From an uncultured virus (IMG/VR IMGVR_UViG_2609460245_000002) (taxonomy: Duplodnaviria > Heunggongvirae > Uroviricota > Caudoviricetes), in IMG/VR virus record IMGVR_UViG_2609460245_000002, positions 1-64,000 of that record: 64,000 nucleotides of DNA; one strand, written 5' to 3'. Of the stretch, positions 2,260 through 56,825 are shown piece after piece. The position numbers were made by a program, and so were the translations under genes. A model generated the notes under the pieces. It worked only from the letters and a program-made list of their open reading frames with translations, was not told the DNA's origin and searched no databases. The number at the start of each line of letters is the position of its first letter. Position 1 is the first letter of the stretch.

Positions 2260-2289
2260 TCTCGGCTCCTCCTTGTCTGTGATGGGCTT

Positions 2290-2490: not shown

Positions 2491-2495
2491 AATCT

Positions 2496-2873: not shown

Positions 2874-2874
2874 A

Positions 2875-6856: not shown

Positions 6857-6872
6857 ATCTACTCCTACTGCA

Positions 6873-7217
6873 TTAATTGTGGAACGTTGCCTCTGTCGAT
6901 CCCTCTGGTCGCATCTTACGAAGAGTGAACCGCAGGTTACTATCATCACACGCTGCGATATGAGCTTCCAGAGAGGCGCAGCCGAGGCTCAACCATTCCT
7001 TGTCTGTCCGCTCAAAGCCAGAGAATCGTAGGCCCTCTACGACTCGGCCAATCAGGGTGCGATGTTGACAGAAAACCATTTCATACGAGTAGTTTTTAAC
7101 ATCCATGCCGTTAGTCCACAGATGCTCCCTAACCACCTTCTCATTATTACTCTGGAACGCCTCTTTGAAGCCATCGACCAGCATGAGGTCTTCCAGACTC
7201 AGGTTATATTCTGCCAT
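6873..7217 (-). CDS. Hypothetical protein
   Basis: ORF between thyX and nrdB, start MAEYNL after AAGGAG. Confidence 0.6.
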   Translation of the reverse strand: MAEYNLSLEDLMLVDGFKEAFQSNNEKVVREHLWTNGMDVKNYSYEMVFCQHRTLIGRVVEGLRFSGFERTDKEWLSLGCASLEAHIAACDDSNLRFTLRKMRPEGSTEATFHN

Positions 7218-7218
7218 T

Positions 7219-8181: not shown

Positions 8182-8211
8182 AAACTCTCCTTATTAAATC
8201 TTTGATACAAT

Positions 8212-8230
8212 AAAGGGAGCCGAAGCTCCC
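8212..8230 (-). terminator. UUCG-loop terminator
   Basis: GGGAGC-TTCG-GCTCCC-TTT. Confidence 0.7.
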
Positions 8231-8387
8231 TTGTCTTATTGAAGCATTGCGAAGGTGAGGCACCATACGACCTCGCTAGCGAGTACAGGATGCACCATCA
8301 TGAGCTTCTGTTTTACTTTCTGGATCATATCTACATACCTCCTTCGTTTCAACTTGGAGCCTATTATCGCAAGCCTCAGAGAGAATG

Positions 8388-9338
8388 TCAACCCCTTTCT
8401 CTGAGAATCTTATCGATCTCCAACTGAGCAAAGAAGATGACTTTCTCGTAGTCCCGGATAACATCGTTGCCGGCCTTGAGCTTGCCTAGGTTCTGAGCTG
8501 CCGCAGCACGCCACAACGCTTTGAACATGTTACCTTGACCGAATCGCATATCCAACGCCTCGATAATGTCATTACACTCTGCGAAGTACTCTCGATTAGC
8601 CTTCGTGGTTGGGTTGGTCACCTTGACAGTGTAATAACTGGAGGAGCCTCCGCTACCCACAGCTTCTGTGTGGTTGGCCATAGCTTCCAGTGTGGCGTAG
8701 TTATCTTCGCCTAGGTAGTCCTCTAGACCTACGAATATCAATCCCTGCTCTTCATTTTCTGCTACGCTCCGCATGGATTTTTTATACTGATCGTAGCTGC
8801 TCCCTTTCGACAAGTGCTCAACCGTCGTTTCCGCATCTTCGTGCTCTACCTCCGACTCCTCAGCTAGAGCCGAAAACTCTTCTTCATCAGCGGTGTAGGG
8901 CGACAAGATATCTTTAATAGACGCCTTCTCGAACAATGGAATACTTTTAGGTGTCGCTCCTGTCGAAAACAAACCATAAGCTCTCTCTAGGTTTGTCAGA
9001 GGCTGGGCTCGCTCCCAGTTAACAAAAGTAGCCGTGGGCGGCTCCTCGAACAAAACATCATACGCCTGTTGCATATCGGCCAGATTACTCGGATCATAAC
9101 CTTCCTTCTTCAGCAGGAAGAAGTCGGAAAACCGGCATACTTTGACAGAGCAGTCGTCGTCAGCGGTACTTACCATCCTTACAACCAGTTCACCTTCTTT
9201 GATATTACCCCGAGCTTCAGTAACAACTAGAACCGTTCCGTGAGGGATATCACAGGCATTCCAATGATCGATATTAGGGGAGCATTTCGCTCTCTTAACT
9301 AGCGAGATCGATTGTCCAACATGAACGTGCTCACTCAA
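8388..9338 (-). CDS. Protein with C-terminal DUF3310-like domain
   Basis: YY...ECNDII..L..FGQGNMFKALWR...D.EK..FF pattern. Confidence 0.55.
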   Translation of the reverse strand: MSEHVHVGQSISLVKRAKCSPNIDHWNACDIPHGTVLVVTEARGNIKEGELVVRMVSTADDDCSVKVCRFSDFFLLKKEGYDPSNLADMQQAYDVLFEEPPTATFVNWERAQPLTNLERAYGLFSTGATPKSIPLFEKASIKDILSPYTADEEEFSALAEESEVEHEDAETTVEHLSKGSSYDQYKKSMRSVAENEEQGLIFVGLEDYLGEDNYATLEAMANHTEAVGSGGSSSYYTVKVTNPTTKANREYFAECNDIIEALDMRFGQGNMFKALWRAAAAQNLGKLKAGNDVIRDYEKVIFFAQLEIDKILRERG

Positions 9339-9546
9339 AGTTCACCTCCATATCCTTAAGCTCTTGGAACCCTTCTAGGCTCTCGATTTTAGCACACATC
9401 ACCCGCATAGTGATGTAACCCTTCAACACTCCTTGCGGACCCTTGAATTGACTCTCTAGGAACGCCAGCAGGGCATCAAGCCCTGCCGAGTCAACCATGA
9501 GATCGTCTTCAGAGAGGGCAGCCTCGTCTTTTACAATCTCTTCCAC
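9331..9546 (-). CDS. Hypothetical protein
   Basis: 71-aa ORF, GTG start with GAGGAG RBS. Confidence 0.55.
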   Translation of the reverse strand: MEEIVKDEAALSEDDLMVDSAGLDALLAFLESQFKGPQGVLKGYITMRVMCAKIESLEGFQELKDMEVNFE

Positions 9547-9549
9547 TTG

Positions 9550-10113
9550 TTACTCCTCGTCGCTAATCGATTCACGAATGCAGTCCAGAATGAAGGACAG
9601 GTTCATGTGCAGGGTCATGAGATCGTCCTTAGTCTGAGGCATAGATGCAACCAGAATCATCAGTTTCAGGAAGTCAGGGCCACCCATCACCATAGGCAGG
9701 TCGCCCAAGCTGGTGCGGATGTGTCGTGCAAGCATGCCATAGTCCAGTTCACCGTCCTCGGTCACGATGGAATCTTCCAGAGACTTACGGTCGGTCAAGG
9801 CTTTCTCTACCAGAGCCCGCTGCTCCGGGTTCATACCTGCCATTGCTTCTTCCATTTGTTCCGGGGTGATGTTGAAATCAGTCATTTTTATATCTCCTTT
9901 TCGATTATTTAGATTTGCGGTCGATTTTGAAAATAGCGCCGCTGTTGCAGTGTACAGCACCGTCTCCGAAGAAGTCAACTCCGAAATACTTGACGCTTCG
10001 TTATTCTCGCATGTTGAAGTCACTTTCTCAATATCTTCGGCGGTAAAGCTCGCAGTGATACTAAACATAAAGAACAAGCCTGCAAGGGCCGCCCCAAGGA
10101 AAAACTCAGCCAT
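9550..10113 (-). CDS. Hypothetical protein(s); probably two genes joined by an indel
   Basis: Internal AAAGGAGA RBS before MTDFNIT at 9885. Confidence 0.5.
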   Translation of the reverse strand: MAEFFLGAALAGLFFMFSITASFTAEDIEKVTSTCENNEASSISELTSSETVLYTATAALFSKSTANLNNRKGDIKMTDFNITPEQMEEAMAGMNPEQRALVEKALTDRKSLEDSIVTEDGELDYGMLARHIRTSLGDLPMVMGGPDFLKLMILVASMPQTKDDLMTLHMNLSFILDCIRESISDEE

Positions 10114-10310
10114 ATGCCCTCCTATTACCTAATTAGCCGATAACTTTAACAGAGTCGAAGCCCAGCAGGCCTGCGTCCTCCAGTTCCTCAATAGTATCAT
10201 CAATCCCGCAGTCTGACAAGCTTTAACTACATCTTCTTCCATCTGGTAGTAGTCTCGCCACAGGCACTCATTGATACCGATATCCCATTCACACCAGAAC
10301 TTATAAACTG

Positions 10311-11090
10311 TCATTTGAAACCTCCTTTCTCCATCATGAAGTCCAGACTTACTGGCATAGGTAGACCAAAACCATCCTTCACTTCGTGAATCATCACGCA
10401 GCCACGGAAGTGATTGTTGCCTTGATAGCCTTTGTAAGCCTCGTCGTGAGGATAGCACGCTCCAGTCACAATGCCAAGCCTTTGTTTGCCATCAATTGTA
10501 GGATGGATCGCCCAGTCCAGAAGCTGACGGTGGCCCATGACAAACGAATGACCGGCAGCCTTGAGCATGTTGTTCGCTGTACCGCCTAGTGGCTTGCCAG
10601 TGAAGTGGTTTTGCAGGTAGTGGACGTAGTAGATGCCATCCACTTCGATAGGCTTGAGGAACGGGACAACCTCAAAACCGTAGTCCTGAATCCCAAGCTC
10701 CTCACTCCCCACGGTGCCATACAACTCAGGGTTATCGTTCGCTGCTCGATCAGCCCGCTCTTCGTGGTTGCCCAGTGTGAAAATCAACCGAGGTTGGTAC
10801 ACTTTCTTCCGATTAGCCCGTTGACGTTCCTGTAGCTCCCACAGAGGCTTGAACAGTCGGTCCAGACCCTCACGTCCGACTTGCACGTCTTCAGAGTACC
10901 TACGGCCCTCAGAGGAGCGTTTACCCTTATCGTAGGACGACAGGCTGGCTAGGTCAAAGTGATCTCCAATGTGGATCACAACATCCGGGCGTTTGGCTAC
11001 GATGTATTTACCGATAGCTTCCATGTAGTCCAGATTGATACCCGGCTTGCATTGTGTGTCAGAAATTACAAAGTGTTTCTTACTGCTCAT
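10311..11090 (-). CDS. Calcineurin-like metallophosphoesterase
   Basis: ISDTQ, HIGDHFD, LGNHE and GH motifs. Confidence 0.85.
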   Translation of the reverse strand: MSSKKHFVISDTQCKPGINLDYMEAIGKYIVAKRPDVVIHIGDHFDLASLSSYDKGKRSSEGRRYSEDVQVGREGLDRLFKPLWELQERQRANRKKVYQPRLIFTLGNHEERADRAANDNPELYGTVGSEELGIQDYGFEVVPFLKPIEVDGIYYVHYLQNHFTGKPLGGTANNMLKAAGHSFVMGHRQLLDWAIHPTIDGKQRLGIVTGACYPHDEAYKGYQGNNHFRGCVMIHEVKDGFGLPMPVSLDFMMEKGGFK

Positions 11091-11269
11091 TCTACCTCCT
11101 CCCATTCGCCTTCTCCCGGTTGATAATACAAAAATGCATCGATACGTTTGTACAAGTCCGTATCATATAGTCCGTTTTTCTGCATCATAACCAAGGCCTC
11201 GTCGAGCATAGAGACAGCTTCGATCAAGTCCCGAAGTTCTGCTATAGTTTTACTAATATCGCGCTGCAC
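11087..11269 (-). CDS. Small hypothetical protein
   Basis: GTG start after GAGGAGG; YDTDLY..IDAFLY.Q. Confidence 0.55.
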   Translation of the reverse strand: MQRDISKTIAELRDLIEAVSMLDEALVMMQKNGLYDTDLYKRIDAFLYYQPGEGEWEEVE

Positions 11270-11270
11270 C

Positions 11271-11432
11271 TTATTCCTCCTCGCACTCTTGACCGTAGAG
11301 GAATGCTGCAATGTCCTCGTATACATCTGTATCGTAGCAATGAACGTTGTCGAGTAGATTGTGAGCCCTCTCAAGGAGCTTTGTGGCTTCCTCTAGGTCT
11401 TGTTTGATGAAGTATGCTTTAGGGTCCATCAT
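11271..11432 (-). CDS. Small hypothetical protein missing from the ORF track
   Basis: Hand translation MMDPKAYF...YDTDVYEDIAAFLYGQECEEE. Confidence 0.55.
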   Translation of the reverse strand: MMDPKAYFIKQDLEEATKLLERAHNLLDNVHCYDTDVYEDIAAFLYGQECEEE

Positions 11433-11434
11433 GC

Positions 11435-11872
11435 TCATTTCGTCTCCTTCAGTAGTTTGATGATATCATCATATGTGGATGTTTTAATAGTTAGACGAAC
11501 GTATCCGTCTCCAACGGAGTCTGGCACTTCAAATCCGATAACGTCTTTCAGCAAGTCGAGTACCAATTGATTCTCATTCTTCAGAGATTCAGCTATATCG
11601 ATAATCTCGAAAGCAGATTGACTCTTGAAAGCTGCGGCCTCTCGGCTAGCCAAACGGTAGCACCCATTCTCCACTATCATAGGAATGTTCAAGTCGGACC
11701 ATCGCTCCATGTCCCTTTTAGCAGCCCATACGCCCAGTGTAGTTCCCTCATAGGCGTTTCTCCAAGCTAGAGCCGCAGCCCCTTTTGTTGCCCATTGCCG
11801 CTTCCCTTTAGGAGTAGTCCAAATCTCCTTAGTTTTCTTATGGCGGATAACATAAGTAGCAAGACTCGTCAT
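11435..11872 (-). CDS. Hypothetical protein
   Basis: ORF starting MTSLATY after GAGGAG. Confidence 0.6.
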   Translation of the reverse strand: MTSLATYVIRHKKTKEIWTTPKGKRQWATKGAAALAWRNAYEGTTLGVWAAKRDMERWSDLNIPMIVENGCYRLASREAAAFKSQSAFEIIDIAESLKNENQLVLDLLKDVIGFEVPDSVGDGYVRLTIKTSTYDDIIKLLKETK

Positions 11873-12095
11873 AGCTCCTCTCCTGTACGAAGACATTTAA
11901 CGGCTCCTTTAGCAGCGGAAATGAGTACCGAGTATCCCTCTTCCAACTGATCCTTTGCGGTATAGAAGAAGTCTATAACTCCGGCAATTAATGCCGCTAC
12001 AGCCGGGAGCCAGAAGAACACGGATATCCAAATCAGAACAATAGATGCTCGTACTCTGATCGGCAGCTTTCGCATGATTTTAATAAGCTTCTCTC

Positions 12096-12494
12096 TCACA
12101 TAGGCCTCCACAGTTTTGCAAATTTAAGAACATTCGGGGTTTCCTCCTTGCTAAGAGGAGGCACCACTAGACAAGAGCCCTCTCCGTTGCAGATGGTTCT
12201 CTCATACCCCTCATATACGAAAGGGATTTGCTTGATCTTATTGTACTCTTTGTCAGAAACTCGTACAACGATCTTACGGAAGCTCCACTGTTTCCACTCC
12301 ACCCACTTAATGGCGGTTTTTGCCGCTGCATGCATATACGGACGGGACGGAAGGTCCGTCGATGGAACGGCCCGGTCCTGTCCGAGGAGAACCATTGCCA
12401 TGTCTGCCCCTAGGATGCTATGTGCAACCAGAGTAGGCACCATGTATTCTGGTGCCTCGTCTCTTACTACAATGTAAACCCGATCCTCGTTCAT
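12096..12494 (-). CDS. Putative Pth2-family peptidyl-tRNA hydrolase
   Basis: YIVVR.E...LVAH...W...RKIVVRV...G...CLVVPP matches the PTH2 layout. Confidence 0.6.
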   Translation of the reverse strand: MNEDRVYIVVRDEAPEYMVPTLVAHSILGADMAMVLLGQDRAVPSTDLPSRPYMHAAAKTAIKWVEWKQWSFRKIVVRVSDKEYNKIKQIPFVYEGYERTICNGEGSCLVVPPLSKEETPNVLKFAKLWRPM

Positions 12495-13060
12495 CCACCC
12501 TCCTTCTTAGACCTAAGGTATCCAATGATCTGCTCTTTTCTAAGCTCTGCGTTGGATGCGGGTTTGATTCCCACTTCCTGCAAGAAGACCTTATCATATC
12601 CCTTTTGCTTCTGGATTGCAATAGCCTGCTTTACGATATCTGCTTCCTCTAGGGTCAGCCCATAACGCTCTGCATAGGTCTTGATCTCATGGCACGGTTT
12701 GCACAGTACAGCTAAGTCCTCCATTCTCACGAACACCACGCCCTCTACGAAGGTTTGGATGTCCTCCACACGTTTCAGTGAGAATTCTCCAGTCTTGTGG
12801 TCAATCTCGACGTCAGCTTGAGGGGTCTCCTTGCCACACTGCTCGCATACATAGCCCCATACAGTGGGATTGCGGAGCTTGCTCTTTTCATTGGTGTTGA
12901 CTATTTTGACCCTTCTAGACTTTGCGAACTCCAGTTTGACGGGGTTCTTGGACCAGAGATAGCGGCGAATGCCGCCTCTGACCCAACTCAAGAACGCCGC
13001 CTCAGTTTTCCAGATGCCCGGGAAGTCCTCCCAAGGACGCGCCTTACACTCATTCAACAC
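12491..13060 (-). CDS. HNH endonuclease
   Basis: CEQC...EIDH...L.VLCKPCH..KT. Confidence 0.8.
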   Translation of the reverse strand: MLNECKARPWEDFPGIWKTEAAFLSWVRGGIRRYLWSKNPVKLEFAKSRRVKIVNTNEKSKLRNPTVWGYVCEQCGKETPQADVEIDHKTGEFSLKRVEDIQTFVEGVVFVRMEDLAVLCKPCHEIKTYAERYGLTLEEADIVKQAIAIQKQKGYDKVFLQEVGIKPASNAELRKEQIIGYLRSKKEGG

Positions 13061-14103
13061 CTCCTAGCTCTACGCCCATTTTAGCCAGAACGGCTCTACA
13101 GTCAACTCTGTCTCCCGCCCAGCGTTGCATGTGGGCGCAGTCGCAGTACATTTGCATGATCTCTACGGCGTCTTTCGTGTGCTCGGTGCCATCCCAAGCT
13201 GTATAGGTGACAGGTTCAGGATACCAAGATTTGTAGGTGTCGTAGATGGCTTGCCAGCACTCTTTGTCAGACGCACAAGGGTTGATAATGTTGTAAGCAG
13301 CCACTTCTCCGAAGTCCTTTCCGATGCACAGGTCCGCTGGTCGGTAGCAGTCAACAGGGTCTCCGAATAGCAACTGGAAGTAGAAGAACTTACGTCCCTC
13401 GCCTCTCACCTTGCCCTTAGAGTCCCTATAGAGCGATCCTAGGCCCGAAATGAACTTGACCTGAACAGGCTCCCTCTCATAGTTGCAAAGCCATCCTAGA
13501 GTGCCGTCTGCGTCTTTATCGATGGTAGCTCCGATAACACGCTGCTTGGTTTCTCCCCGGGAATAACTCACTCCATTTTTGTACATCATTTCCGCCATGA
13601 GATCATCCGCTTCACCGGGGTGAATGATGGTGTCATAGGCTTCGATCATGTACTGCCGTAGCTGACCTAGCTGTAGAGGTTTGATTTGTCCAGTTCTCTT
13701 ACCTTTGTATCGACCACCGCGTGTGAATGTCTTCTTCCCTTTGGTCAACTCGTACTCTTGTGGCAGAGGGATAGAGTCCCTGAAGTTGTCGGGACCAGAT
13801 AGGAGAATCTTGAACTGCTTGCACCCGGCTTGTCGGCAAATTCGGTCGATCATGGTCTTAACAACAGAGATACCATAGGATACGTGCTTGGGGTCTTGAT
13901 GGTCTTCTATTTCGAAGTTGTCTTCGTTGAACCCTTCGCTGTCCTTGTTATTCTCTCGCCAAGTCGTCCGATTCTTCCAAGTCTCTTCTTCTCCGGTCAA
14001 TTTGTTTTTAATCGATGATTGAGCGAGTCTCGTTGACACTTGCACACTTAAAGGCGATCAGGTCGCCGTCAATGAGGACAATATCCTCTTCCTTTTCACT
14101 CAT
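13050..14103 (-). CDS. 5'-3' exonuclease (T7 gp6/FEN-like), frameshifted near 14020
   Basis: N-terminal LIDGDLIAF, then NFR, YKG.R, EADD, DKD and GD.VD motifs. Confidence 0.85.
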
Positions 14104-14117
14104 TTTTATCTCCAATG

Positions 14118-14139
14118 AAAAAGGGAGCCGAAGCTCCCC
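14118..14139 (-). terminator. UUCG-loop terminator
   Basis: GGGAGC-TTCG-GCTCCC-TTTTT. Confidence 0.75.
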
Positions 14140-14144
14140 TTGGG

Positions 14145-14366
14145 TTAGAACTGTACAACCTGAATGTCCCACTCTGTCTGTCGAGTGTCAGGGTTTACAT
14201 TGTTAGGAAGAGTAACATAAGCCGGCTCTCCTTTGAGGATACTCCCCGCAGCACTCTTCAAGTCTCTGAAAAGCTCTCGTTCCCAGACCTCCCCGCAGAA
14301 GGAGTTGTTTACTGTAGGGCCTTTTAGAATGTACGCAGGTACTCGAACAATAACTAGGGTGCTCAT
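14145..14366 (-). CDS. Hypothetical protein
   Basis: 73-aa ORF. Confidence 0.5.
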   Translation of the reverse strand: MSTLVIVRVPAYILKGPTVNNSFCGEVWERELFRDLKSAAGSILKGEPAYVTLPNNVNPDTRQTEWDIQVVQF

Positions 14367-14375
14367 AATCGGTTC

Positions 14376-14609
14376 TCACTTCTTTCGGAGGTTGTTTTTA
14401 AAACTGTACTTAACCTTACTGCGGCTCCCAATGGCATAAAGCACACCAGCTACCACGCCAAAACCTACAAGAACAACCAGCATGATTACGAAAGGAATCC
14501 AGATGGGCATGAGCGCCAGAGTCCAAGAGATAGCGAGTACGCCGGCAGACTTCAGTACGCACAGAATGATGGCAGCCAGAAGAAAAATAGGACCGAGATT
14601 GATTTGCAT
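14376..14609 (-). CDS. Small two-TM membrane protein
   Basis: LK..G....SW...L.PIWI motif, basic tail. Confidence 0.6.
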   Translation of the reverse strand: MQINLGPIFLLAAIILCVLKSAGVLAISWTLALMPIWIPFVIMLVVLVGFGVVAGVLYAIGSRSKVKYSFKNNLRKK

Positions 14610-14631
14610 GTGTTACCTCCTTTGAAATTTG

Positions 14632-14654
14632 AAAGGGAGGGGCCGAAGCCCCTC
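14632..14654 (-). terminator. UUCG-loop terminator
   Basis: GAGGGGC-TTCG-GCCCCTC. Confidence 0.7.
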
Positions 14655-14678
14655 TATTGCCTCTACTTCCGCGTAACC

Positions 14679-15683
14679 TTAGAACGGAATGTCGTCATCG
14701 ACGTTGGTCTGAACCGGCTCAACTTTAGGAGCAGCTTTAGTCTGCTCTTTAGCTTCAGCTTGTTCCTCGCTGTCACCGCTGGAGCGGTTACCGCCGCGTG
14801 CAGCTTCAACAGCTTCGATCATCGCCTTGATATCCGAACCTTCGTAGTTCTTGGCTCGCTTGATGGTGTTAATGACGTTGGCACGCAGTTGCTTAACTGC
14901 CTCTTCGTCGTTCTCACCATACAGGTTCACGCCGTAGATGTACTTCTCATCCAGTTCAGGAACCGGAACACCTTCAGGCACCATACCGACCAGACTGATA
15001 TCCTCGGTGAGGAATTTCATGTCGTTTTTGCCCGGCTTCATCCACACTCGAACTTGGAACTGAGCCACTTTACCCAGAAGCTCGCCTACGCGGTCCTTGG
15101 TGAAGAGTTCGTCTTCGTTGATGACGCCAGTAGCTACAGCCAGTTTGTGCAGCATGGAGTTCTTAGCGAACGCCCATTTGCCGTTCGGGTGCTTCACTTC
15201 CTTGATGGTGAACGGACGGCCAACAATCTTAGTCTTCTGACCCGGCAGAGTAAAGTCGCCGTTGTACAGGACACGAAGCGGAGACTTGTTGCTGTTACCG
15301 GTCAGGTACAGGCTCTTGTCTACCTCGATCTGAGGGAAGTCCACAGTGATCGCGATTTGTTGCATATCGCGCTGCGGCCAGCACTTCAGACGTACAGGCT
15401 TGCGAGTCTGCTTGTCCAGTCCATCCTTGAAGTAAGTGTTCGGATATTCCTTGATGATTTGGATTTCATCTTCGGCAGTGCCAGTGAACACAACCTCTGC
15501 ATCGTTCTGCTCTTGCTCGCCGAGGTCGATGATGCCGGAGATATAACCCGGGATCGAACGTGCTTTAGCGGCAGTGCCAGCAGCTTCCACGACGTGGTTG
15601 TTCAGAGCATCCCAATCGACTTCCTTGCGGATGCCGCCGTTGCCGGATTGAGTGTTGGTAGTTACGTTCAGTTTAAAAGCCAT
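14679..15683 (-). CDS. Putative single-stranded DNA-binding / replication protein
   Basis: Acidic C-terminal DDDIPF tail typical of SSBs; strongly biased codon usage. Confidence 0.65.
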   Translation of the reverse strand: MAFKLNVTTNTQSGNGGIRKEVDWDALNNHVVEAAGTAAKARSIPGYISGIIDLGEQEQNDAEVVFTGTAEDEIQIIKEYPNTYFKDGLDKQTRKPVRLKCWPQRDMQQIAITVDFPQIEVDKSLYLTGNSNKSPLRVLYNGDFTLPGQKTKIVGRPFTIKEVKHPNGKWAFAKNSMLHKLAVATGVINEDELFTKDRVGELLGKVAQFQVRVWMKPGKNDMKFLTEDISLVGMVPEGVPVPELDEKYIYGVNLYGENDEEAVKQLRANVINTIKRAKNYEGSDIKAMIEAVEAARGGNRSSGDSEEQAEAKEQTKAAPKVEPVQTNVDDDIPF

Positions 15684-15784
15684 TTTATTTCTCCTATTTA
15701 AGTACCCTAGACTGGGCGAGTGTGTCAGCCACTTGACCGACGATCATACCGGACATTCCCGGATTCTGCAAGAGGATTAGCGCA

Positions 15785-16495
15785 TTAGCGCACCTCCTCT
15801 CCTTTAATCAGTTTGACAATCGAGACGCCTTCCGCCTTGCCACCCCACCAACGCTTAGTGGACCGTGCCTCTTCGCGAGTAATGGTGAACTTAAGCGGGA
15901 ATCCGTCTACATCGAGAACAGCATAACCCATTACAGCGGGCTTTGCAACCTTTTCTTTCTTCTCTTCGTTGACCGGAGCTTCAATAGCCTCCTCTGCCTC
16001 TTCTTTGAACTCCTCAAGTACCAATTCAGGGTAGAGAGTCTGGAGCTTCGGATCGTCAGAAATATCACCGCCGATGTTAACTCGTCCTTTAAAGAGCATG
16101 CAGAATGGGCTCTCTCCTTCGAGCATGCTCTTTAGCCAGCACGGTTCGAAACCCTCGTACAAAGCTGGTTCCGAAGTAACCAAGTAGTGGGAGATCAAGT
16201 CCGGGCGCTCGGCAGCGCTCTTAACATAGTACTTCTTACCCGGGATCGCTACAATTTCGAAGCGGTCGTTGTCAGCGAGCATCGATTGGTAGTCTCCAAG
16301 TCCATCATTGACGTCTCGGTCAATGGACCAATGGAGGGAGCAGAACCGGATTTCCCCTTCCGGGAGACCGATATCGCGTCCATCTACTGCGACTGCGTAT
16401 GCGCCTACATATCGGGCTTCCTTTGGCCAGCCAACGGTGACGTCACATCCCACTTGAGTGAGTTTGACGATAGTCCCGGGAATAACACCAGACAT
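15785..16495 (-). CDS. Hypothetical protein
   Basis: 236-aa ORF with AAGGAGG RBS. Confidence 0.65.
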   Translation of the reverse strand: MSGVIPGTIVKLTQVGCDVTVGWPKEARYVGAYAVAVDGRDIGLPEGEIRFCSLHWSIDRDVNDGLGDYQSMLADNDRFEIVAIPGKKYYVKSAAERPDLISHYLVTSEPALYEGFEPCWLKSMLEGESPFCMLFKGRVNIGGDISDDPKLQTLYPELVLEEFKEEAEEAIEAPVNEEKKEKVAKPAVMGYAVLDVDGFPLKFTITREEARSTKRWWGGKAEGVSIVKLIKGEEVR

Positions 16496-16496
16496 A

Positions 16497-16664
16497 TTAT
16501 TTACCTCCTTTCTGTTTGTATTTGTTAGCCACGCTTTTATGGGCTAACGGTGTCTCCGATACCTCGAAGCCTTTAGAGGTATAGTACTCTCGGTTGGCCT
16601 TGTTGTCAACAGTGATTCCTACCATAGACGATTTGCCGTAGACGTAGAGTCGAGCCGTGTTCAT
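16497..16664 (-). CDS. Small basic protein missing from the ORF track
   Basis: 55-aa MNTARLYVYG...KQKGGK with AGGAGGT RBS. Confidence 0.55.
   Translation of the reverse strand: MNTARLYVYGKSSMVGITVDNKANREYYTSKGFEVSETPLAHKSVANKYKQKGGK
16581..16609 (-). promoter_or_regulatory. Sigma70-like promoter
   Basis: TTGACA-N17-TACTAT. Confidence 0.65.
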
Positions 16665-16692
16665 ACATACCTCCTATTCTGTGATTACCGTA

Positions 16693-17091
16693 TCACTCGC
16701 TGCTGCCTTCGACAGCTTTCAGAGTTTCTTTCTTAGCCCGCTTAACCAGAGCTTCGAGCAGTTCAGTAGATTCGCTGAGAACCTGCTGAGTAGCGTCCGC
16801 TTGATAGAGGCTCTGTGCAGCGTACCCGCCAACCATCCACCATGCCGTCTCAGACGAAGGGACCAGATGACCGATTACAATGATCGGTAGAAACAGCTTG
16901 AATGTCAAGGGTCGTAGGTGATTTTTGAGTGTAGCTTTAACTGCCTCATTTTCTCGGCCACCAATCGATGCCAAGTAAACAAACCCTCCTGCAACCCACG
17001 CGATGATAGTAACGATCAAGGTAAAACTCCCTGCCGAATACAGGGCTGGGAATACGGTCATAACGAGATAGATAACAAAAGCTAGAGTCAT
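16693..17091 (-). CDS. Membrane protein
   Basis: Three hydrophobic segments. Confidence 0.6.
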   Translation of the reverse strand: MTLAFVIYLVMTVFPALYSAGSFTLIVTIIAWVAGGFVYLASIGGRENEAVKATLKNHLRPLTFKLFLPIIVIGHLVPSSETAWWMVGGYAAQSLYQADATQQVLSESTELLEALVKRAKKETLKAVEGSSE

Positions 17092-17128
17092 TGAGTTTTT
17101 CTCCTCTGTATGTCATGAATATGTGGCC

Positions 17129-17157
17129 ATTGTATAGGAGGCGGAGGGGCCTGTCAA
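17129..17157 (-). promoter_or_regulatory. Sigma70-like promoter
   Basis: TTGACA-N17-TACAAT. Confidence 0.75.
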
Positions 17158-17182
17158 GCCCCTTTCTTCGCTTAGTGCCAGA

Positions 17183-19898
17183 TTAGTGGCAGTCCTTCCA
17201 AGAGCGACCAACGATGTAGCCGGCGGTCAGTTCAATGGGCACCAACGGAGTGGAGTAGAACTCCCCGGCAGCACCTACAGCCTTAGTGGCAAGTTCTCCA
17301 GCGCGGCAGTAGGCTACAAACACTCCACCTTCGCCTTTGCTGTAGTGTGCAATATCGCTCCACACCTTGCCCGTGGTAGCCAGTTGCTCATCCTTGTAAG
17401 CCTGAGCAAGAGCTTTCAACTCCTTCTCGGCTGCCTCTCGCTCCTTCTCCCCTTCCGGCTTACCGCCTACAAGAGACCAAGGGAACATCTTGAAGCTGAC
17501 CGACTTAGCTGTGACTTCCAACTGCGCTTCGTCGTGGTACGCGATCATTTGTTGGCAGAATTCCGGCTTGTTCTTCCAGTCTTCTTTGAAAAAGTCAACC
17601 TTCAGACCTTCTTTCTCCAGCAGTTGGTCATGAATCACCATAGCACGTTTAGCACAGATAACACCGCCACTCTGGAACAAGCTGTTCAGGATAGCGTGAG
17701 CCGAACGAGTAGGAACTCGGCGACCGTCCACTCCAACAATATACTTCTTACCGTTGGCTTCCCACTGCTTGGTTAGGTCATCCTTCAGTGCTTTCAATGG
17801 GAATGCTGCATCCCAGAACGCATCGAATACCAGTTGACCCGTTTGCAAATCGGCACCAATGGTTTTTGCCACTTTACCAGCTTGAGCACCGTACGTACAC
17901 CCGTATTTTACGTTTTTTCGCAGGAGACCGGTTAAATTGACGACCGATAATCTCGGAAATACGCTTAGCCATCATCGTGTGAACGTCGAATGGCTTCTCC
18001 ATCATGAGTGACTTACAGTATTCCTTTGTCGGATCGTACTGATCGCAGTAGGCCGACTCTTTACGTGCTTCCAAGGAGTCGAAGTCATACCCAATTTGGA
18101 AGTACCCGTCCTCTACACCGAATAGTTCTCGAAGCTCTGCACCATAGAGGGACGTGATTCGAGGGACGTTGGCCACCTTTCGGTGCTTCATCCGGCTAGT
18201 AGCAGCCCCGCAAGTGTCAGCAGGCGTGGGAATCCTGCCGTCCTGACGAATGCTTGCAAGGTAACCTTTTTCCGGCTCCTCTCCATCCTCCATTTCGTCC
18301 CAGTCCATGCCGCCACCGAGGATTGCGCTTCGCCGGTGCTTAAAGGTCAGGTACTCAATCACATCCTTCGCGAACGGAAACTGTTCTGCAATGCGTTCGA
18401 GGTCTGGACACATTTCTTTCTCTTGGCCCTTTGTGAAGCTAGGGTTAGTGAGAACCTTACAGCCCCCCTTGCTTGCACGATCAATCAACCTCTGACGTAC
18501 ATACGCGCGGGTGCTACGAGGGGTGATCTTCATGTAATCCCCGAACCCGTCCAGCCGCTCTTCCTTGTACGCTGTGCTATACGTTACATCCAGCCAGCGA
18601 TCGATCTTAGCAACGATGTTTTCCATCGGAAGCTTGATCTTCTTCTGATCCACAGTCAGATCAGTCTCTTTCCACTCTGATGGAATCCAACCAAACTCAC
18701 CCATAAGCCATTGCTTGATGTGAGTTGTGTCCCCGATCTTAGCAGGCATTTCCGTCTTCAGCGGTACGTCTGCCGGGAGAGGCAGCTTGTACTCCTTACC
18801 CTCAAAGATCATGGTTCTGTCGTCGCCCTCTTTCAATTGAGCGCCGATCTTTTCAATGAACTTCTGTAGGTAGGTGGTGATCTCCCCGTTCTTCTTGAAC
18901 TGCCGGACAGGCGGAGTGTAGTCTGCCATGAATTTCTTGGTCGCAGGGCGTGGAGGCAGCACAGGCTCTACCCGGGCCCGGCGTTCTTCCATCTTAGCAT
19001 CCAAGTCCTTAACAGCCTTTTCGCAGAGTTCCACGTTCAGTACGAAGCCACGGTGCTCCTGATAGGTGATGATCTCTGCAACCTTCTTCTCCAACTGAAT
19101 CGGCGACAACCAGTTCTTGATGTAGTTGTCCCGGTCGGACAGTTGGTAGTCTTCGTGATCCTGCAACCAGTGCCATACAGCGGTGTTCGCCTTTACGTCA
19201 TAGATACAGTAGTAAAGCATATCGGCTGCGAAGTCGAGGAATCGAACATCCGGTGCCAGATGCTTGCGGAAGTCGATCTTGGTGTCACCACCAGCGCGAC
19301 GAGACAGCTTATCCAGACTGTGGCCACCGAACAGGTCAGGGTTACAAGTCTTGGAGATAACGAGGGTATCGTCGAATACCACCTGCTTGCCCATCCAAGT
19401 ATCTGCCGACCAAGTAGTTAGACCACCATCCCTGTGCTCGACGCCGATAGTAAAGTCCATATCTTCCACAAGCTTCATCGACATAAGGTCGAAGTTAATC
19501 ATGTTGTGAGCCACTACGCGCTTGATCTTGCGCTTGAGCACATAGTTCTTGAACTCTTTCAGCGGCAGGTGAATATACTCTACCGGAGTGTAGTCCTTGA
19601 GAGTCACAACTTCTTCAGTGTGGAGCATGGAAGATGCTTTCGGCAGCTTCTCCGTGTACTCTCGACCGTCGAAGACGTAAGTCGGGCCGTCGTAGAACGC
19701 CAGAATGTTACCGCCGTGCTCTTCTACTACGACACAGTGATGACTGTAGCTTGGCTTGATCTTGTAGGGGCTGGCAGTGTAGTCGATGGACGTTTCATCC
19801 AGCAGACCCGTGGACTCGATATCCCAAGTCATGTTGGTGACATTGTTATTTCCCATCCATTCGAGGTATTGCTCGATTGTTTCAAATCGTTGTTGCAT
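17183..19898 (-). CDS. Family A DNA polymerase, split by an extra A in a homopolymer near 17915
   Basis: Exonuclease DIES, AHNMINFD and YCIYDV; motif A DFDSLEAR; motif B AKNVKYG restored by removing one A; motif C YHDE. Confidence 0.92.
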
Positions 19899-54308: not shown

Positions 54309-54383
54309 TGGTGCCCCATTCCTGACTTGAACAGAATTCGCCGGGTTACAAAGCCGGTGCATCACCATAAATGCTTAAAGGGC
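54309..54383 (-). tRNA. tRNA-Thr(TGT)
   Basis: Cloverleaf with encoded CCA. Confidence 0.8.
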
Positions 54384-54393
54384 AGGGAATAGA

Positions 54394-54446
54394 GCCTGTG
54401 AGACGGGAAAGGAGGAGGAAACCGTTCAGCACAGGCGAGGAGGAAA
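54394..54446 (-). ncRNA. Hairpin with anti-SD loop
   Basis: GCCUGUG/CACAGGC stem; UUUCCUCCUC present twice. Confidence 0.45.
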
Positions 54447-54449
54447 GAG

Positions 54450-54567
54450 TGTCATGTTGTGGAATCGAACCACCTATCGCTCTGCTGCGAGAGCCCGCTA
54501 TTCTCGCTTTACTGGCTTACGATCCAGAGAGCCTAAAAGCGTCAACGCGATATACCATTGCACGACA
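54450..54567 (-). ncRNA. tRNA-like RNA with expanded anticodon domain
   Basis: Acceptor UGUCGUG/CAUGACA; T arm GUGG-UUCGAUU-CCAC. Confidence 0.55.
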
Positions 54568-54568
54568 T

Positions 54569-54644
54569 TGGTTGGAGGCGGGGACTCGAACCCCAACAAT
54601 CGGGTCACAACCGAAAGGCAGCATCCGGGCTACACAATCTCCAC
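54569..54644 (-). pseudogene. Degenerate tRNA-His(GTG)
   Basis: T arm, GTG loop and CCA present; D arm and acceptor stem imperfect. Confidence 0.5.
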
Positions 54645-54704
54645 ACGAATAATGCCAAGCCGGCTGAAAGCACATACGGAGGAATGTTCCGGCTTGGACT
54701 TGAT

Positions 54705-54780
54705 TGGAGCAGTTACCGGGGATCGAACCCGGAACACCAGATTGAAAGTCTGGCGATTTAACCATTTAATCTATAACTGC
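54705..54780 (-). tRNA. tRNA-Glu(TTC)
   Basis: Cloverleaf, CCA. Confidence 0.9.
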
Positions 54781-54786
54781 TTTATT

Positions 54787-54863
54787 TGGTGGGACCGGGG
54801 CGAATCGAACGCCCGACCTGTGGGATTTCAATCCACCGCTCTAACCTTCTGAGCTACAGTCCC
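54787..54863 (-). tRNA. tRNA-Phe(GAA)
   Basis: Cloverleaf, CCA. Confidence 0.9.
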
Positions 54864-54869
54864 TTTGTT

Positions 54870-54945
54870 TGGAGCGGATAGACGGACTCGAACCGACGAC
54901 GAACTGCTTGGAAGGCAGACGCTCTACCAACTGAGCTATACCCGC
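54870..54945 (-). tRNA. tRNA-Gly(TCC)
   Basis: Cloverleaf, CCA. Confidence 0.9.
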
Positions 54946-54951
54946 TTTAAT

Positions 54952-55029
54952 TGGTCACCCCGGAAGGATTTGAACCTTCGACCTTCTGATTCCAAATCAG
55001 ACACTCTAACCAGACTGAGCTACGAGGAG
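54952..55029 (-). tRNA. tRNA-Pro(TGG)
   Basis: Cloverleaf, CCA. Confidence 0.88.
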
Positions 55030-55092
55030 ATGAATAAGGCCCGTAACGGGCGTTCGACTCTGCTTCTAAAGCGAAGAGTCTCTTTTGGAAAT

Positions 55093-55168
55093 TGGCTGGG
55101 ACGGCAGGGCTCGAACCTGCGACCTGAGAGTTAACAGCTCCCTGCTCTACCAACTGAGCTACATCCCA
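55093..55168 (-). tRNA. tRNA-Asn(GTT)
   Basis: Cloverleaf, CCA. Confidence 0.9.
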
Positions 55169-55178
55169 ATATAAACCT

Positions 55179-55254
55179 TGGAGCCGCGTATCGGATTTGA
55201 ACCGATATGAGACGGATTTGCAATCCGCCGCCTAAACCTCTCGGCCAACGCGGG
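55179..55254 (-). tRNA. tRNA-Cys(GCA)
   Basis: Cloverleaf, U73, CCA. Confidence 0.88.
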
Positions 55255-55259
55255 CTAAA

Positions 55260-55485
55260 TTCATGAGGTTGTTAACCCGGGCCTCCGGGAGATACTGGAT
55301 CACCTCCTATGGCTTACAGCATCTAATTCAAATCTAGGAGCTATAACGGGCCCGAGCCGGACGATTTATACTGGCTGCCAGTAGCTTATCACAGCTACTC
55401 AATTACCCGTGCCAGCTTAGGCGCTTCCCCTTACCGAGATAGGTAGCGACACTGAACCCACCACTTAGGGTTCCTCGGAGTGCAA
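55260..55485 (-). ncRNA. Multi-helix ncRNA candidate in the tRNA cluster
   Basis: At least six helices; AGGAGGUGAUCCAG segment. Confidence 0.55.
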
Positions 55486-55487
55486 TT

Positions 55488-55568
55488 TGGAAGCGAGAGG
55501 TGGAATCGAACCACTTGTATTCGGTTATGAGCCGAGTGACAGCGCCAGCCAGTCTTAACGCTCTCGCT
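55488..55568 (-). tRNA. tRNA-Met(CAT), atypical D arm
   Basis: Acceptor, anticodon and T arms, CCA. Confidence 0.7.
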
Positions 55569-55571
55569 ATT

Positions 55572-55658
55572 TGGTGGTCGAAGGAAGGAATTGAACCTCT
55601 AGCCTATGGCGTCCGGGTTACAGCCGGATGATAGTAGCCATCTATCTCTACAACGACC
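55572..55658 (-). tRNA. tRNA-Tyr(GTA), atypical
   Basis: TCCGG-CTGTAAC-CCGGA, variable arm, CCA. Confidence 0.7.
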
Positions 55659-55662
55659 TTGT

Positions 55663-55741
55663 TGGCGACCCATGTCGGATTCGAACCGACGACCTTGCCC
55701 TAGACAGGGGCTTGCTCTAGTCCAGACTGAGCTAATGGGCC
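55663..55741 (-). tRNA. tRNA-Asp(GTC)
   Basis: Cloverleaf, G73, CCA. Confidence 0.88.
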
Positions 55742-55750
55742 TATAAATTC

Positions 55751-55826
55751 TGGTAGCCAGAGAAGGACTTGAACCTTCAACCATCCGATTATCGGTCGGG
55801 TGCTCTACCAATTGAGCTATCCGGCT
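55751..55826 (-). tRNA. tRNA-Ile(GAT)
   Basis: Cloverleaf, CCA. Confidence 0.9.
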
Positions 55827-55851
55827 ATATTGTTTGTTACTCTATGTACCT

Positions 55852-55879
55852 ATATTATCATGAATTTCTTGTTTGTCAA
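55852..55879 (-). promoter_or_regulatory. Promoter within the tRNA cluster
   Basis: TTGACA-N16-TAATAT with TGn. Confidence 0.65.
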
Positions 55880-55950
55880 CCCCCCCTTCATGATAACTTT
55901 TATAGCGCCGGGGAGGTCTGAAAGCAGCGCTACCTTCGTCAGTCCCCTAG

Positions 55951-56029
55951 CTCTCTCACTATTTGGCCGCCATAGACCGGCCTTAAGTGACCGGGTAGGG
56001 ACTCGAACCCTAACCAAATAGCAAAAGAG
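55951..56029 (-). ncRNA. Circularly permuted tRNA-like RNA (YrlA-like topology)
   Basis: 16-bp closing helix, T arm, loop-closed acceptor-like stem, GG D-like loop. Confidence 0.6.
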
Positions 56030-56039
56030 ATTCTTAATT

Positions 56040-56124
56040 TGGTGGCCCCGGAGGGACTTGAACCCTCAATCCTCTCGGCGTCAGTTTCTAAGACTGATGT
56101 GTATACCAATTCCACCACAGGGCC
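56040..56124 (-). tRNA. tRNA-Leu(TAG)
   Basis: Cloverleaf with variable arm, CCA. Confidence 0.9.
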
Positions 56125-56130
56125 TTAATT

Positions 56131-56220
56131 TGGCAGCGAGTAAAGGAGTCGAACCCTCACCGCTCATCGCAGTGGCCTAGTTTTCTAGACTAGTTCCCGA
56201 CCTACTCAGGGCTACTCGCT
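56131..56220 (-). tRNA. tRNA-Ser(AGA)
   Basis: CTAGT-CTAGAAA-ACTAG, long variable arm, G73, CCA. Confidence 0.75.
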
Positions 56221-56245
56221 AAGTATTTCTTGATCTGATAAGTGT

Positions 56246-56274
56246 ATTAAAACATGAAAAATTCAGTTTGTCAA
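56246..56274 (-). promoter_or_regulatory. Promoter within the tRNA cluster
   Basis: TTGACA-N17-TTTAAT with TGn. Confidence 0.6.
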
Positions 56275-56294
56275 CACTTAAAATCACTTATTTT

Positions 56295-56382
56295 TGGCAG
56301 TGAGCAGTGGTCTCGATCCACATCCGCGCTAGCAGACGTACTCCTTAGCAGGGAGCCTCAGAACCTATCTGATTTACTCACT
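56295..56382 (-). tRNA. tRNA-Ser(GCT), atypical T loop
   Basis: CTCC-CTGCTAA-GGAG, variable arm, T loop ATCGAGA, CCA. Confidence 0.7.
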
Positions 56383-56387
56383 AAAAT

Positions 56388-56464
56388 TGGTTGAACGGGT
56401 GAGACTCGAACTCACTATAAGTCTGGTTAAAAGCCAGATGCTGATCCACTTTAGCTTCCGTCCA
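56388..56464 (-). tRNA. tRNA-Lys(TTT)
   Basis: Cloverleaf, CCA. Confidence 0.85.
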
Positions 56465-56471
56465 TCTAATT

Positions 56472-56546
56472 TGGCGCTCATACTAGGATTCGAACCTAGA
56501 CCTTACGGCTTAGAAGACCGTTGTGCATCCGTTACACTATACGAGC
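56472..56546 (-). tRNA. tRNA-Arg(TCT)
   Basis: Cloverleaf, CCA. Confidence 0.88.
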
Positions 56547-56556
56547 AATTGGCGTC

Positions 56557-56585
56557 ACTATACAGGAGACCTTCTCTCCTGTCAA
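56557..56585 (-). promoter_or_regulatory. Promoter with palindromic spacer
   Basis: TTGACA-N17-TATAGT; ACAGGAGA-N5-TCTCCTGT. Confidence 0.65.
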
Positions 56586-56593
56586 CACTAATT

Positions 56594-56670
56594 TGGCGGG
56601 CCGACTCCGATTCGAACAGAGAATACGAGGATTTGGAATCCAGTAGGTTGCCAATTACGCTCACCGACCC
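56594..56670 (-). tRNA. tRNA-Trp(CCA)
   Basis: Cloverleaf with imperfect anticodon stem, CCA. Confidence 0.75.
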
Positions 56671-56751
56671 TTAATTCTGGAGGACACTTATTACTCGCTG
56701 TCCTCTGAGCGAGACACATTCCTTGTCGGGTGAATGTTCTTTTACTACATT

Positions 56752-56825
56752 TGGCAGCCGCTGATGGGATCGAACCATCATCTCCAGATTCAAAGTCTGG
56801 CGTCCTACCATTGAACGAAGCGGCA
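56752..56825 (-). tRNA. tRNA-Gln(TTG)
   Basis: Cloverleaf, CCA. Confidence 0.88.

Follow-up and report, generated by a model that had tools for sequence, protein, structure and literature searches.

The 64,000-nt stretch of DNA analyzed here (positions 1 to 64,000 of IMG/VR record IMGVR_UViG_2609460245_000002; hereafter the window) comes from an uncultured virus of the Caudoviricetes and carries, in a spacer of its transfer RNA (tRNA) array, an RNA element that we call module B. Module B contains an extended Shine-Dalgarno (SD) sequence, a 14-mer perfectly complementary to the 3' tail of 16S ribosomal RNA (rRNA), which no start codon follows at a working distance. The core of the element is conserved among five lineages of Pseudomonas phages whose flanking sequences have diverged, it varies in a manner compatible with structure and opposite to that of coding sequence, and its homologue in phage PAK_P3 lies in a transcript with a mapped 3' end. 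We propose that module B may pair with the 16S 3' tail without initiating translation, and may do so where RNAs end or are processed at junctions, a reading to which we give a probability of about 0.42. Below we present the evidence that bears on this proposal together with the rival explanations, and relate the element to a wider family of phage sequences, to the alphaproteobacterial RNA CC2171 and to SD-like stabilizers of messenger RNA (mRNA).

Complementarity to the 16S rRNA tail and its conservation

Around the 14-mer the window is 99.5% identical to phage PaP1 over 401 bases, and 159 Pseudomonas phage records match; the source is evidently a PaP1/PAK_P1-type Pseudomonas phage (Pakpunavirus). 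ARAGORN identifies 15 tRNA genes at 54309-56825, all on the minus strand and 13 of them confirmed by Rfam, and region 55260-55485 falls within the 233-nt spacer that separates tRNA-Met from tRNA-Cys. At 55295-55308 the plus strand reads CTGGATCACCTCCT and the minus strand (55308-55295), which is the transcribed (tRNA-sense) strand of the array, reads AGGAGGTGATCCAG. An initial annotation of this DNA, made from the sequence alone, had equated the plus-strand segment with the 16S 3' tail and the minus strand with its 14-nt complement, and the sequence and small-subunit (SSU) rRNA 3' ends bear this out. Relatives of the element carry the 17-mer TAAGGAGGTGATCCAGC, which is present in 71 of 151 genomes of a gammaproteobacterial order holding a Halioglobus metagenome-assembled genome, at 1-8 copies per genome as expected of rRNA and never in the reversed control; at all four loci examined in the same order it is complementary, base for base, to the final 17 SSU rRNA positions. 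The sequence AAGGAGGTGATCCAGCC is described as a universal reverse primer in use with P. aeruginosa. The exact 14-mer has a single copy in the window and in the whole 91,751-bp genome, and sites with at most three mismatches number 15 in the window against 6.6 expected. After the 14-mer, the longest stretch of the window that complements the 16S tail has 11 nt, and the complementarity of genuine ribosome-binding sites (RBSs) there does not exceed 10 nt. The window 14-mer is predicted to form a duplex of -29.5 kcal/mol with the final 17 nt of 16S (-28.6 to -33.9 kcal/mol across the lineages); the RBS-like sites of the window that were evaluated, the three with the longest complements, give -15.9 to -18.4 kcal/mol.

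Outside Pakpunavirus, 45 nt of the Nankokuvirus phages (PAK_P3, KPP10 and others, at least 60 records) are 87% identical to module B (blastn, E = 1e-5), and nothing else in the Nankokuvirus spacer aligns with the window. The exact 14-mer also occurs in the Kassivere group of P. putida phages (five identical records) and in phage XD2, and P. fluorescens phage Y1-MI has the one-base variant AGGAGGUGAUCUAG; in all three cases the element again follows tRNA-Met and precedes a tRNA. Among the five lineages (Pakpunavirus, Nankokuvirus, the Kassivere group, XD2 and Y1-MI) 17-20 of the 20 core positions are identical, as against 20-60% of the flanking spacer, and the 11-nt AGGAGGUGAUC is invariant in 8/8 Pseudomonas-phage sequences and in 14/14 of the wider alignment described below. 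The contrast between conserved core and diverged flanks excludes a chance match, and on this point it clearly upholds the initial annotation, which had staked its reading on conservation of the 14-mer in relatives. The complement measures 14 nt in Pakpunavirus, 15 nt in Nankokuvirus and 17 nt in the Kassivere group and XD2, where it takes in the whole terminal UAAGGAGGUGAUCCAGC; a C-to-U change within the complement of Y1-MI produces a G-U pair. In three of the five lineages the complement reaches through the last 17 nt. Such a pattern is what one would expect of an invariant partner in trans, for which the 16S 3' tail would be the obvious candidate.

The initial annotation had seen no start codon at normal spacing and no open reading frame (ORF) of 60 amino acids or more, and had allowed that the 14-mer might simply be the RBS of a small ORF. 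No AUG, GUG or UUG lies 4-13 nt past GGAGG in any of eight sequences covering all five lineages, no ORF of at least 30 amino acids lies within 55260-55485, and no small ORF accounts for the 14-mer. The sole start candidate is a GUG inside the SD-like sequence itself, at an SD-GUG spacing of 0 nt. A tiny gene starting at this GUG within AGGAGGUG (MIQYL...) has in its favor that some records annotate a "hypothetical protein" here and that the GUG shares its frame with an endolysin-like ORF of contig L338, PHROG 38078 aligning from residue 26; in contigs L339 and L351, however, a stop comes after the same module, and translation of the endolysin there has a separate start at +130. The ORFs that open at the GUG comprise 23, 14, 14 and 15 codons in frames that differ by lineage, with a UAG at codon 3 in Y1-MI, and in the GUG frame third codon positions are invariant while changes fall in the first two positions of codon 4, which is the opposite of a coding pattern. 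A tiny gene, like the chance match dismissed above, is thus a highly improbable account of the element, and the core of module B appears to be non-coding, without the marks of a small-protein gene.

What the core does show is a capacity to pair with its own 3' side. The SD segment GGAGGUG and a downstream arm that resembles an anti-SD, YAUCUCC, can form hairpin 1, in which 55 of 56 cells pair across eight sequences from six sources, compared with 45-73% pairing when the partner is slid along as a control. The 5' arm never varies, and at the three variable positions of the 3' arm pairing is kept except for one U-U in Y1-MI; with the SD arm frozen, no compensatory double change is possible. Since the SD arm is invariant while the 3' arm varies, something other than hairpin 1 fixes the SD arm, which we regard as the central observation. 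The G-U pairs of hairpin 1 favor the tRNA-sense strand.

The same observations bear on a rival explanation in which the C/U-rich arm (A)UCUCCC is the working end, an anti-SD mimic that blocks the SDs of target mRNAs like CcsR or "cuckoo" small RNAs (sRNAs), with the SD serving as its lid in cis. UCUC followed by C or U is invariant in 8/8 sequences, and the motif lies at RNA 3' ends, where sRNAs derived from 3' untranslated regions (UTRs) arise. A mere lid would, however, be free to covary with the arm, yet it is the SD that is invariant and the arm that varies; moreover, the 16S complement far exceeds what masking of a 6-7-nt seed would take, and the direction of its extension changes from lineage to lineage. 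We regard the anti-SD mimic as unlikely.

Downstream of hairpin 1 lies a GC hairpin, S1, that is common to Pakpunavirus and Nankokuvirus and whose loop ranges from 4 to 6 nt among relatives. This loop (GAGG in the window, CGGG in PAK_P3) complements the tail that follows an A-rich linker (CCUC and CCCG, respectively), which defines a candidate helix S2. Together, S1 and S2 could form a pseudoknot: in the wider family the S2 arms occur in 10 versions that are complementary throughout, S1 (CCC/GGG) is invariant and the linkers of several members are 0-1 nt. The Kassivere group, XD2 and Y1-MI (group II) have another stem, of 5 bp, whose 17-nt loop is conserved; this stem shows two compensatory pairs and 20/20 paired cells, and 34 of 500 shuffles reach the observed score.

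The predicted fold also raises the question whether the element titrates, as a sponge, RsmA/CsrA, a translational repressor that recognizes GGA in hairpin loops. Pseudomonas RsmY and RsmZ act as RsmA sponges, and the minimum-energy fold of module B puts AUAGGA in a 6-nt loop closed by GCC/GGU. There is only one good GGA site, however, the conserved block runs 8 nt past any RsmA motif, neither Nankokuvirus nor group II has the closing stem GCC/GGU, and the motif also occurs in contigs of probably diverse hosts, so that an RsmA sponge seems very unlikely.

Two modules, their transcripts and their setting

The initial annotation presented the spacer as a single multi-helix RNA of ~225 nt. This description did not survive: the predicted fold of the 233-nt spacer is no more stable than those of shuffled sequences (z = -0.89, with 39 of 200 shuffles folding as well), and the spacer consists of two modules and not of one RNA, because K5-type phages lack the module A half. 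In K5, K8 and PJNP029 the spacer is reduced to its final ~65-75 nt, corresponding to module B, immediately after tRNA-Met. In a third Pakpunavirus group a 46-nt hairpin is inserted between modules A and B; seen in ph0034, C11, Henu5, PaYy-2 and phiMK, this hairpin-forming insertion, ACUUCUG...CAGAAGU, sits exactly at the A/B junction (L002:1650-1700), which underlines the separability of the modules.

Among the six helices proposed at first, GAACCC/GGGUUC, AGUAGCU/AGCUACU and CCCGG/CCGGG recur in the consensus of 10 Pakpunavirus spacers, and CGCU/AGCG, ACGGG/CCCGU and CUCCUA/UAGGAG are absent from it. The last of these had been thought to mask part of the SD-like segment; it is not conserved, and CUCCU instead keeps its pairing with the AGGGG of module A, where two substitutions in relatives preserve AGGGG/CUCCU and would break CUCCUA/UAGGAG. 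Masking as such is retained in another form, since the local arm YAUCUCC can cover the SD. The original suggestion of a switchable or ribosome-binding element would therefore still fit, because the core is conserved, no small ORF explains it and a local arm can mask the SD.

Module A is the homologue of PAK_P4sRNA1, a very abundant non-coding RNA (ncRNA) annotated from RNA-seq of phage PAK_P4 (GenBank KC862300, 91948-92050; Blasdel et al. 2017, PMC5563952), and the corresponding stretch of the window is ~55345-55447. In the supplement of that study PAK_P4sRNA1 has 5,774-507,619 reads per library, and its neighbors tRNA06 and tRNA07 have 2,007-17,527 and 113-4,130, respectively (PMC5563952). 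PAK_P4sRNA1 occupies the same place as module A between tRNA-Met and tRNA-Cys; it stops 37 nt short of the 14-mer, the feature first flagged in this spacer, and so does not contain it.

For module B the transcript evidence comes from PAK_P3, mapped by Oxford Nanopore (ONT)-cappable-seq. The relevant supplement rows give a sigma-70 promoter, P073, with a transcription start site (TSS) at 85931, and a 3' end, T040, at 86017, which has no predicted terminator type and at which four transcription units stop; an 80-nt "5'UTR-derived" ncRNA candidate is listed at 85937-86017, its validation column empty (Putzeys et al. 2024, Microlife, PMC10914365). This candidate is the module B homologue, since its sequence aligns and its locus and strand correspond, and T040 falls 1-2 nt past CCCG, the S2 strand proposed for PAK_P3. 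It shares with the window the whole 14-mer, the arm and the GC hairpin, and lies on the tRNA strand just upstream of tRNAs; it differs in standing 40 nt behind its own sigma-70 promoter and not in the middle of a tRNA array. Section 20 of that paper and its supplement rows for the candidate mention neither a function nor 16S complementarity (PMC10914365). In the window the 14-mer lies ~540 nt from the nearest promoter-like site, compared with 40 nt from TSS 85931 for the PAK_P3 homologue. That promoter-like site (Table 1), which corresponds in place to the "putative promoter_13" annotated in the PAK_P4 record, is the likely start of the spacer-carrying precursor, and the 5' end of module B in the window could come from tRNA-Met processing.

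Two other sRNAs of PAK_P3, located elsewhere in its genome, are described by Chevallereau et al. (2016; PMC4933390). By eye, PAK_P3 sRNA2 (L001:1521-1650) looks tRNA-like, ~120 nt long, with an acceptor-like stem GCUGUGU/ACACAGC, a T-arm GGUUCGAUUCC and an encoded CCA-like end, which would explain the 11-nt "T-loop" match given there. At L001:1283-1359 (PAK_P3 ~86082-86158) no tRNA is annotated in PAK_P3, where KPP10 and PS24 annotate tRNA-Asn (GTT); ARAGORN finds this tRNA-Asn (GTT) in the IMG/VR copies, and the preceding 68 nt look like a decayed tRNA-Cys.

The scan of the window found no terminator-like site within 55255-55487, and the GC hairpin of module B is followed by UUAACAACC with no U-tract such as an intrinsic (Rho-independent) terminator would have. 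At the gathering threshold Rfam finds only tRNAs in the whole window, and at E <= 10 over the array and spacer the sole lead outside the tRNAs is a sub-threshold match to CC2171. Other identities that were considered, namely a tRNA with an intron, a transfer-messenger RNA, a group I intron or a captured rRNA fragment, and, at the DNA level, a packaging (pac) site or a promoter, find no support in Rfam, in the strand or in the mapped TSS list of PAK_P3; a hepatitis delta virus (HDV)-like or theta ribozyme and a preQ1-I riboswitch, compared by eye with consensus features, are likewise unsupported. The coordinates of the features are collected in Table 1.

Table 1. Features of the tRNA-Met/tRNA-Cys spacer and its surroundings, in window coordinates
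Feature	Coordinates	Strand	Basis	Remarks
sigma-70-like promoter TTGACA-16-TAATAT, with TG	55852..55879	-	consensus scan	upstream of tRNA-Ile
tRNA-Met (CAU)	55488..55562	-	ARAGORN	upstream neighbor of the spacer
Module A	55336..55487	-	consensus fold of 10 spacers	5' ~150 nt; 5' hairpin and rod-like domain
Module A 5' hairpin GAACCC/GGGUUC	55454-55473	-	consensus fold	
Module A rod-like domain	55336-55431	-	consensus fold	closed by AGGGG/CUCCU
Module B	55263..55328	-	alignments	leader, SD-like 14-mer, anti-SD-like arm, GC hairpin, A-rich linker, CCUC tail
AGGAGGUGAUCCAG	55295..55308	-		perfect complement of 14 nt of the 16S rRNA 3' tail; no start codon at working distance
Hairpin 1, GGAGGUG / loop AUCCAG / UAUCUCC	55288..55307	-		SD paired to cis anti-SD-like arm; predicted -6.6 kcal/mol
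GC hairpin S1, CCCGG / AGGC / CCGGG	55276..55289	-	consensus fold	two C shared with the 3' arm of hairpin 1
Candidate helix S2, GAGG (55282-55285) with CCUC (55265-55268)	55265..55285	-	predicted	spans GGGUUAACAA
tRNA-Cys (GCA)	55179..55254	-	ARAGORN and Rfam	downstream neighbor, 9-10 nt past the module B tail

Three further places in the array may hold tRNA genes. The 100-nt gap between tRNA-Met and tRNA-Asp (minus-strand 55563-55662), where phage ph0034 has an annotated tRNA-Tyr (87 nt), is missed in the window by both ARAGORN and Rfam and is probably an odd long-arm tRNA. At 56136-56219 (minus strand), where relatives annotate a tRNA-Ser, there is a sub-threshold match to the tRNA-Sec model (28.6 bits), and another long array spacer at 56597-56670 (minus strand) matches the tRNA model at 28.0 bits, below the gathering score of 29.

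A wider family of elements and CC2171

As a query against IMG/VR the exact 14-mer proved too unspecific, its matches being mostly unrelated (a coding GGDPAS family, ordinary RBSs and SD-plus-promoter repeats), and longer patterns were used instead. Six related contigs (L021, L022, L029, L035, L053 and L057) have the 14-mer directly followed by a promoter-like TTGACT-N17-TATAAAT. A scan for AGGAGGTGATCYAGNNTCTC returned 52 loci, part of them known Pseudomonas phages and part clearly coding stretches, and in many unrelated contigs AGGAGGUGAUCCAGUAUCUCCC is followed by a hairpin with GGGU in its loop. Across 14 elements of the family (group I) the arms flanking the invariant GGGU take 10 different, mutually complementary forms. 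A shuffle control gives per-sequence p values of 0.01-0.25 and a combined p of 3e-5, for which the right border was picked after the arms had been seen and some of the contigs may be kin. A MAFFT alignment of the 14 members left the variable arms out of register, and S2 was judged from an explicit table of arms together with the shuffles; an automatic picker of a hairpin plus loop-tail helix took S2 over S1 in most members and yielded no usable statistic. The CCC that closes the anti-SD-like arm complements the GGG of the downstream loop.

The motif and the late genes on either side of it share one strand in these contigs. It comes right at the stop codon of an ORF, holin-like or other, that precedes it, and is followed by an endolysin gene, by the gene for the terminase large subunit or by scaffold and major head genes. 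In five unrelated contigs (L316, L105, L108, L295 and L311) a U-tract comes directly after the hairpin. Rfam applied to 11 other family members gave a sub-threshold CC2171 match, a GP20-b motif beside one element, and weak anti-hemB and htlv_FSE matches, and Rfam 15 has no family for the motif itself. The GP20-b RNA motif (RF03003, 49.6 bits) lies at L316:406-476, immediately 3' of the SD-hairpin element and before scaffold and major head genes; upstream in the same contig is a 7-codon ORF, MKLLNST, whose UAG overlaps AGGAGG.

The position of the motif invites another reading, in which it serves the tRNA precursor and late transcripts solely as a structural signal for 3' ends, termination or processing, and its likeness to an SD is a relic of an ordinary RBS, or doubles as one. 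PAK_P3 RNA 3' ends do map just past the element, U-tract terminators follow it in several contigs, and extended SDs with ATG right after CCAG serve as real RBSs elsewhere (three examples). A hairpin signal would not, however, need an invariant single-stranded sequence of 11-17 nt, and a start codon is kept in none of the five Pseudomonas-phage lineages and in none of the 10 other element types tabulated. The window element, furthermore, has no terminator-like site, and the supplement rows predict no intrinsic terminator for T040 of PAK_P3. A signal of this kind is in our view an improbable explanation of the whole element.

A scan of bacterial genomes for AGGAGGTGATCYAGNNTCTC gave at least 120 stretches, ~105 of which are one alphaproteobacterial element, recognized by Rfam at 81-97 bits as the sRNA CC2171 (RF01867; L153-L272, e.g., L178:268-431). 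CC2171 is reported as Northern-confirmed in Methylorubrum (bioRxiv 10.1101/2022.01.24.477521). Like the window element it is a non-coding RNA, and its 5' end is a 20-mer, AGGAGGUGAUCCAGUGUCUC, that differs from the window at one position in 20; measured against the CC2171 5' motif GAAAGGAGGUGAUCCAGUGUCUC, the window agrees at 19/20 positions of AGGAGGUGAUCCAGURUCUC. The remainder of the 159-nt model is unmatched, and CC2171 is encoded on its own, between a dedicated promoter and terminator. At 10.7-15.4 bits against the RF01867 model, whose gathering score is 75, the window element is not a member of the family. The invariant 5' end of CC2171 is itself a 15-17-nt complement of the 16S tail, and a sequence that mimics the 16S tail, ACCUGGAUC..CCUC[CU], follows after ~35-45 nt and could fold back to pair with the 5' end. 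A CCTATAT/CCCATAT box, a putative heat-shock-type -10 element, lies ~25 nt upstream.

A possible mechanism and comparison with known systems

We suggest that the spacer would encode two RNAs, module A and module B, both excised from the precursor of the tRNAs, and that module B would belong to an uncatalogued phage RNA motif with three features. The first is the invariant extended SD, which could pair with 14-17 nt of the 16S 3' tail and which no start codon follows; the second is the cis arm YAUCUCC[C], an imitation of the anti-SD that would be able to mask the SD; and the third is a covarying hairpin that would display the GGGU loop and close the RNA 3' end. A 30S subunit may dock on the SD without initiating, as at STAB-SD stabilizers, and in doing so would oust the cis arm, which is held weakly (7 bp, two of them G-U; -6.6 kcal/mol), whereupon the CCC freed at the end of the arm could pair with the GGG of the downstream hairpin. 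The outcome would be a compact, ribosome-occupied RNA end between the upstream transcript and the next late RNA, here tRNA-Cys onward. Its likely effect would be to protect or define RNA ends and to capture 30S subunits near late transcripts. We prefer an end-defining module to a free sponge because of the recurrent position of the element after an upstream gene, at 3' ends or before terminators, and ahead of late genes or tRNAs. The proposal can be widened to say that many phages, and Alphaproteobacteria by way of CC2171, make small RNAs that clamp the last 14-17 nt of 16S with no initiation of translation and so park or sequester 30S subunits at the ends of late-gene transcripts, RNAs that in Pseudomonas phages would be freed from a tRNA precursor; in this general form it is a possibility that we consider doubtful.

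A number of points weigh against the proposed end-defining module with its predicted binding to 30S subunits. The RNA-seq annotation of PAK_P4 covers module A only, and no discrete module B RNA is known from any Pakpunavirus; the region does appear as Logan contigs in three RNA-labelled runs, and the mean contig depths, 325 to ~6,600 in X4, are uninformative on ends, levels or transcription. The motif is absent genome-wide, at up to two mismatches, from phiPsa267 and PPSC2 (Otagovirus) and from KIL3 (Flaumdravirus). Three or four of the 14-17 complementary bases would presumably meet the base of 16S helix 45 and not the free tail. The phage's own genes carry strong SDs, so that a general sponge would harm the phage too. 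As to folding, a pseudoknot with linkers of 0-1 nt, as in several members, is sterically doubtful; in the window the GC hairpin, at -8.9 kcal/mol, outcompetes hairpin 1, at -6.6 kcal/mol, and the minimum-energy fold is an alternative helix, AGAUGCUG/CAGUAUCU. Because the GC hairpin and AGAUGCUG/CAGUAUCU are more stable than hairpin 1, the masking state may be rare.

Two elements of this picture were already known: module A is annotated in a relative, and the module B homologue had been listed as an uncharacterized candidate. Searches of main texts turned up no phage RNA that pairs with the anti-SD and none of these motif strings; relative to the texts searched and to Rfam 15, what appears to be new is the 16S complementarity, the conservation across lineages, the motif family with its covarying GGGU hairpin and the likeness to CC2171. 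Stable RNAs have been seen in phage tRNA clusters since bands C and D of T4, and here one of them has a clear candidate for a molecular partner, the 16S 3' tail. If the proposal is true, it would reveal a phage strategy that acts on ribosomes by RNA rather than by protein, and thus a new viral handling of the host translation machinery; it would give a function to the long-seen stable RNAs of phage tRNA clusters, link them to the orphan sRNA family CC2171 and offer a compact natural 30S-binding handle for building tools. Even if the pairing should prove untrue, the motif would be a widespread structured RNA, not in Rfam, that marks late-gene junctions in phages.

Stable small RNAs co-transcribed with phage tRNAs are cited by Chevallereau et al. 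(2016; PMC4933390) as the only earlier examples from a virulent phage. Those RNAs resemble the ones proposed here in their co-transcription with phage tRNAs. We know of no report of 16S complementarity for the earlier ones. The closest mechanistic parallel is STAB-SD, an SD-like sequence that, as summarized in a later paper, binds the 30S subunit without initiating and blocks nuclease (Agaisse and Lereclus 1996 via PMC4113751). Like STAB-SD of cry3A from Bacillus thuringiensis, the window element is SD-like, complements the 16S 3' end, would direct no initiation and lies in apparently untranslated RNA, its binding to 30S subunits being a prediction. STAB-SD is short, stands at the 5' end, acts against RNase J1 and belongs to a Gram-positive host. 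To our knowledge, the host of the window phage has no RNase J. The window element and its relatives, in contrast to STAB-SD, have a 14-17-nt complement, a mask in cis and a 3' hairpin, and are placed at 3' ends or junctions.

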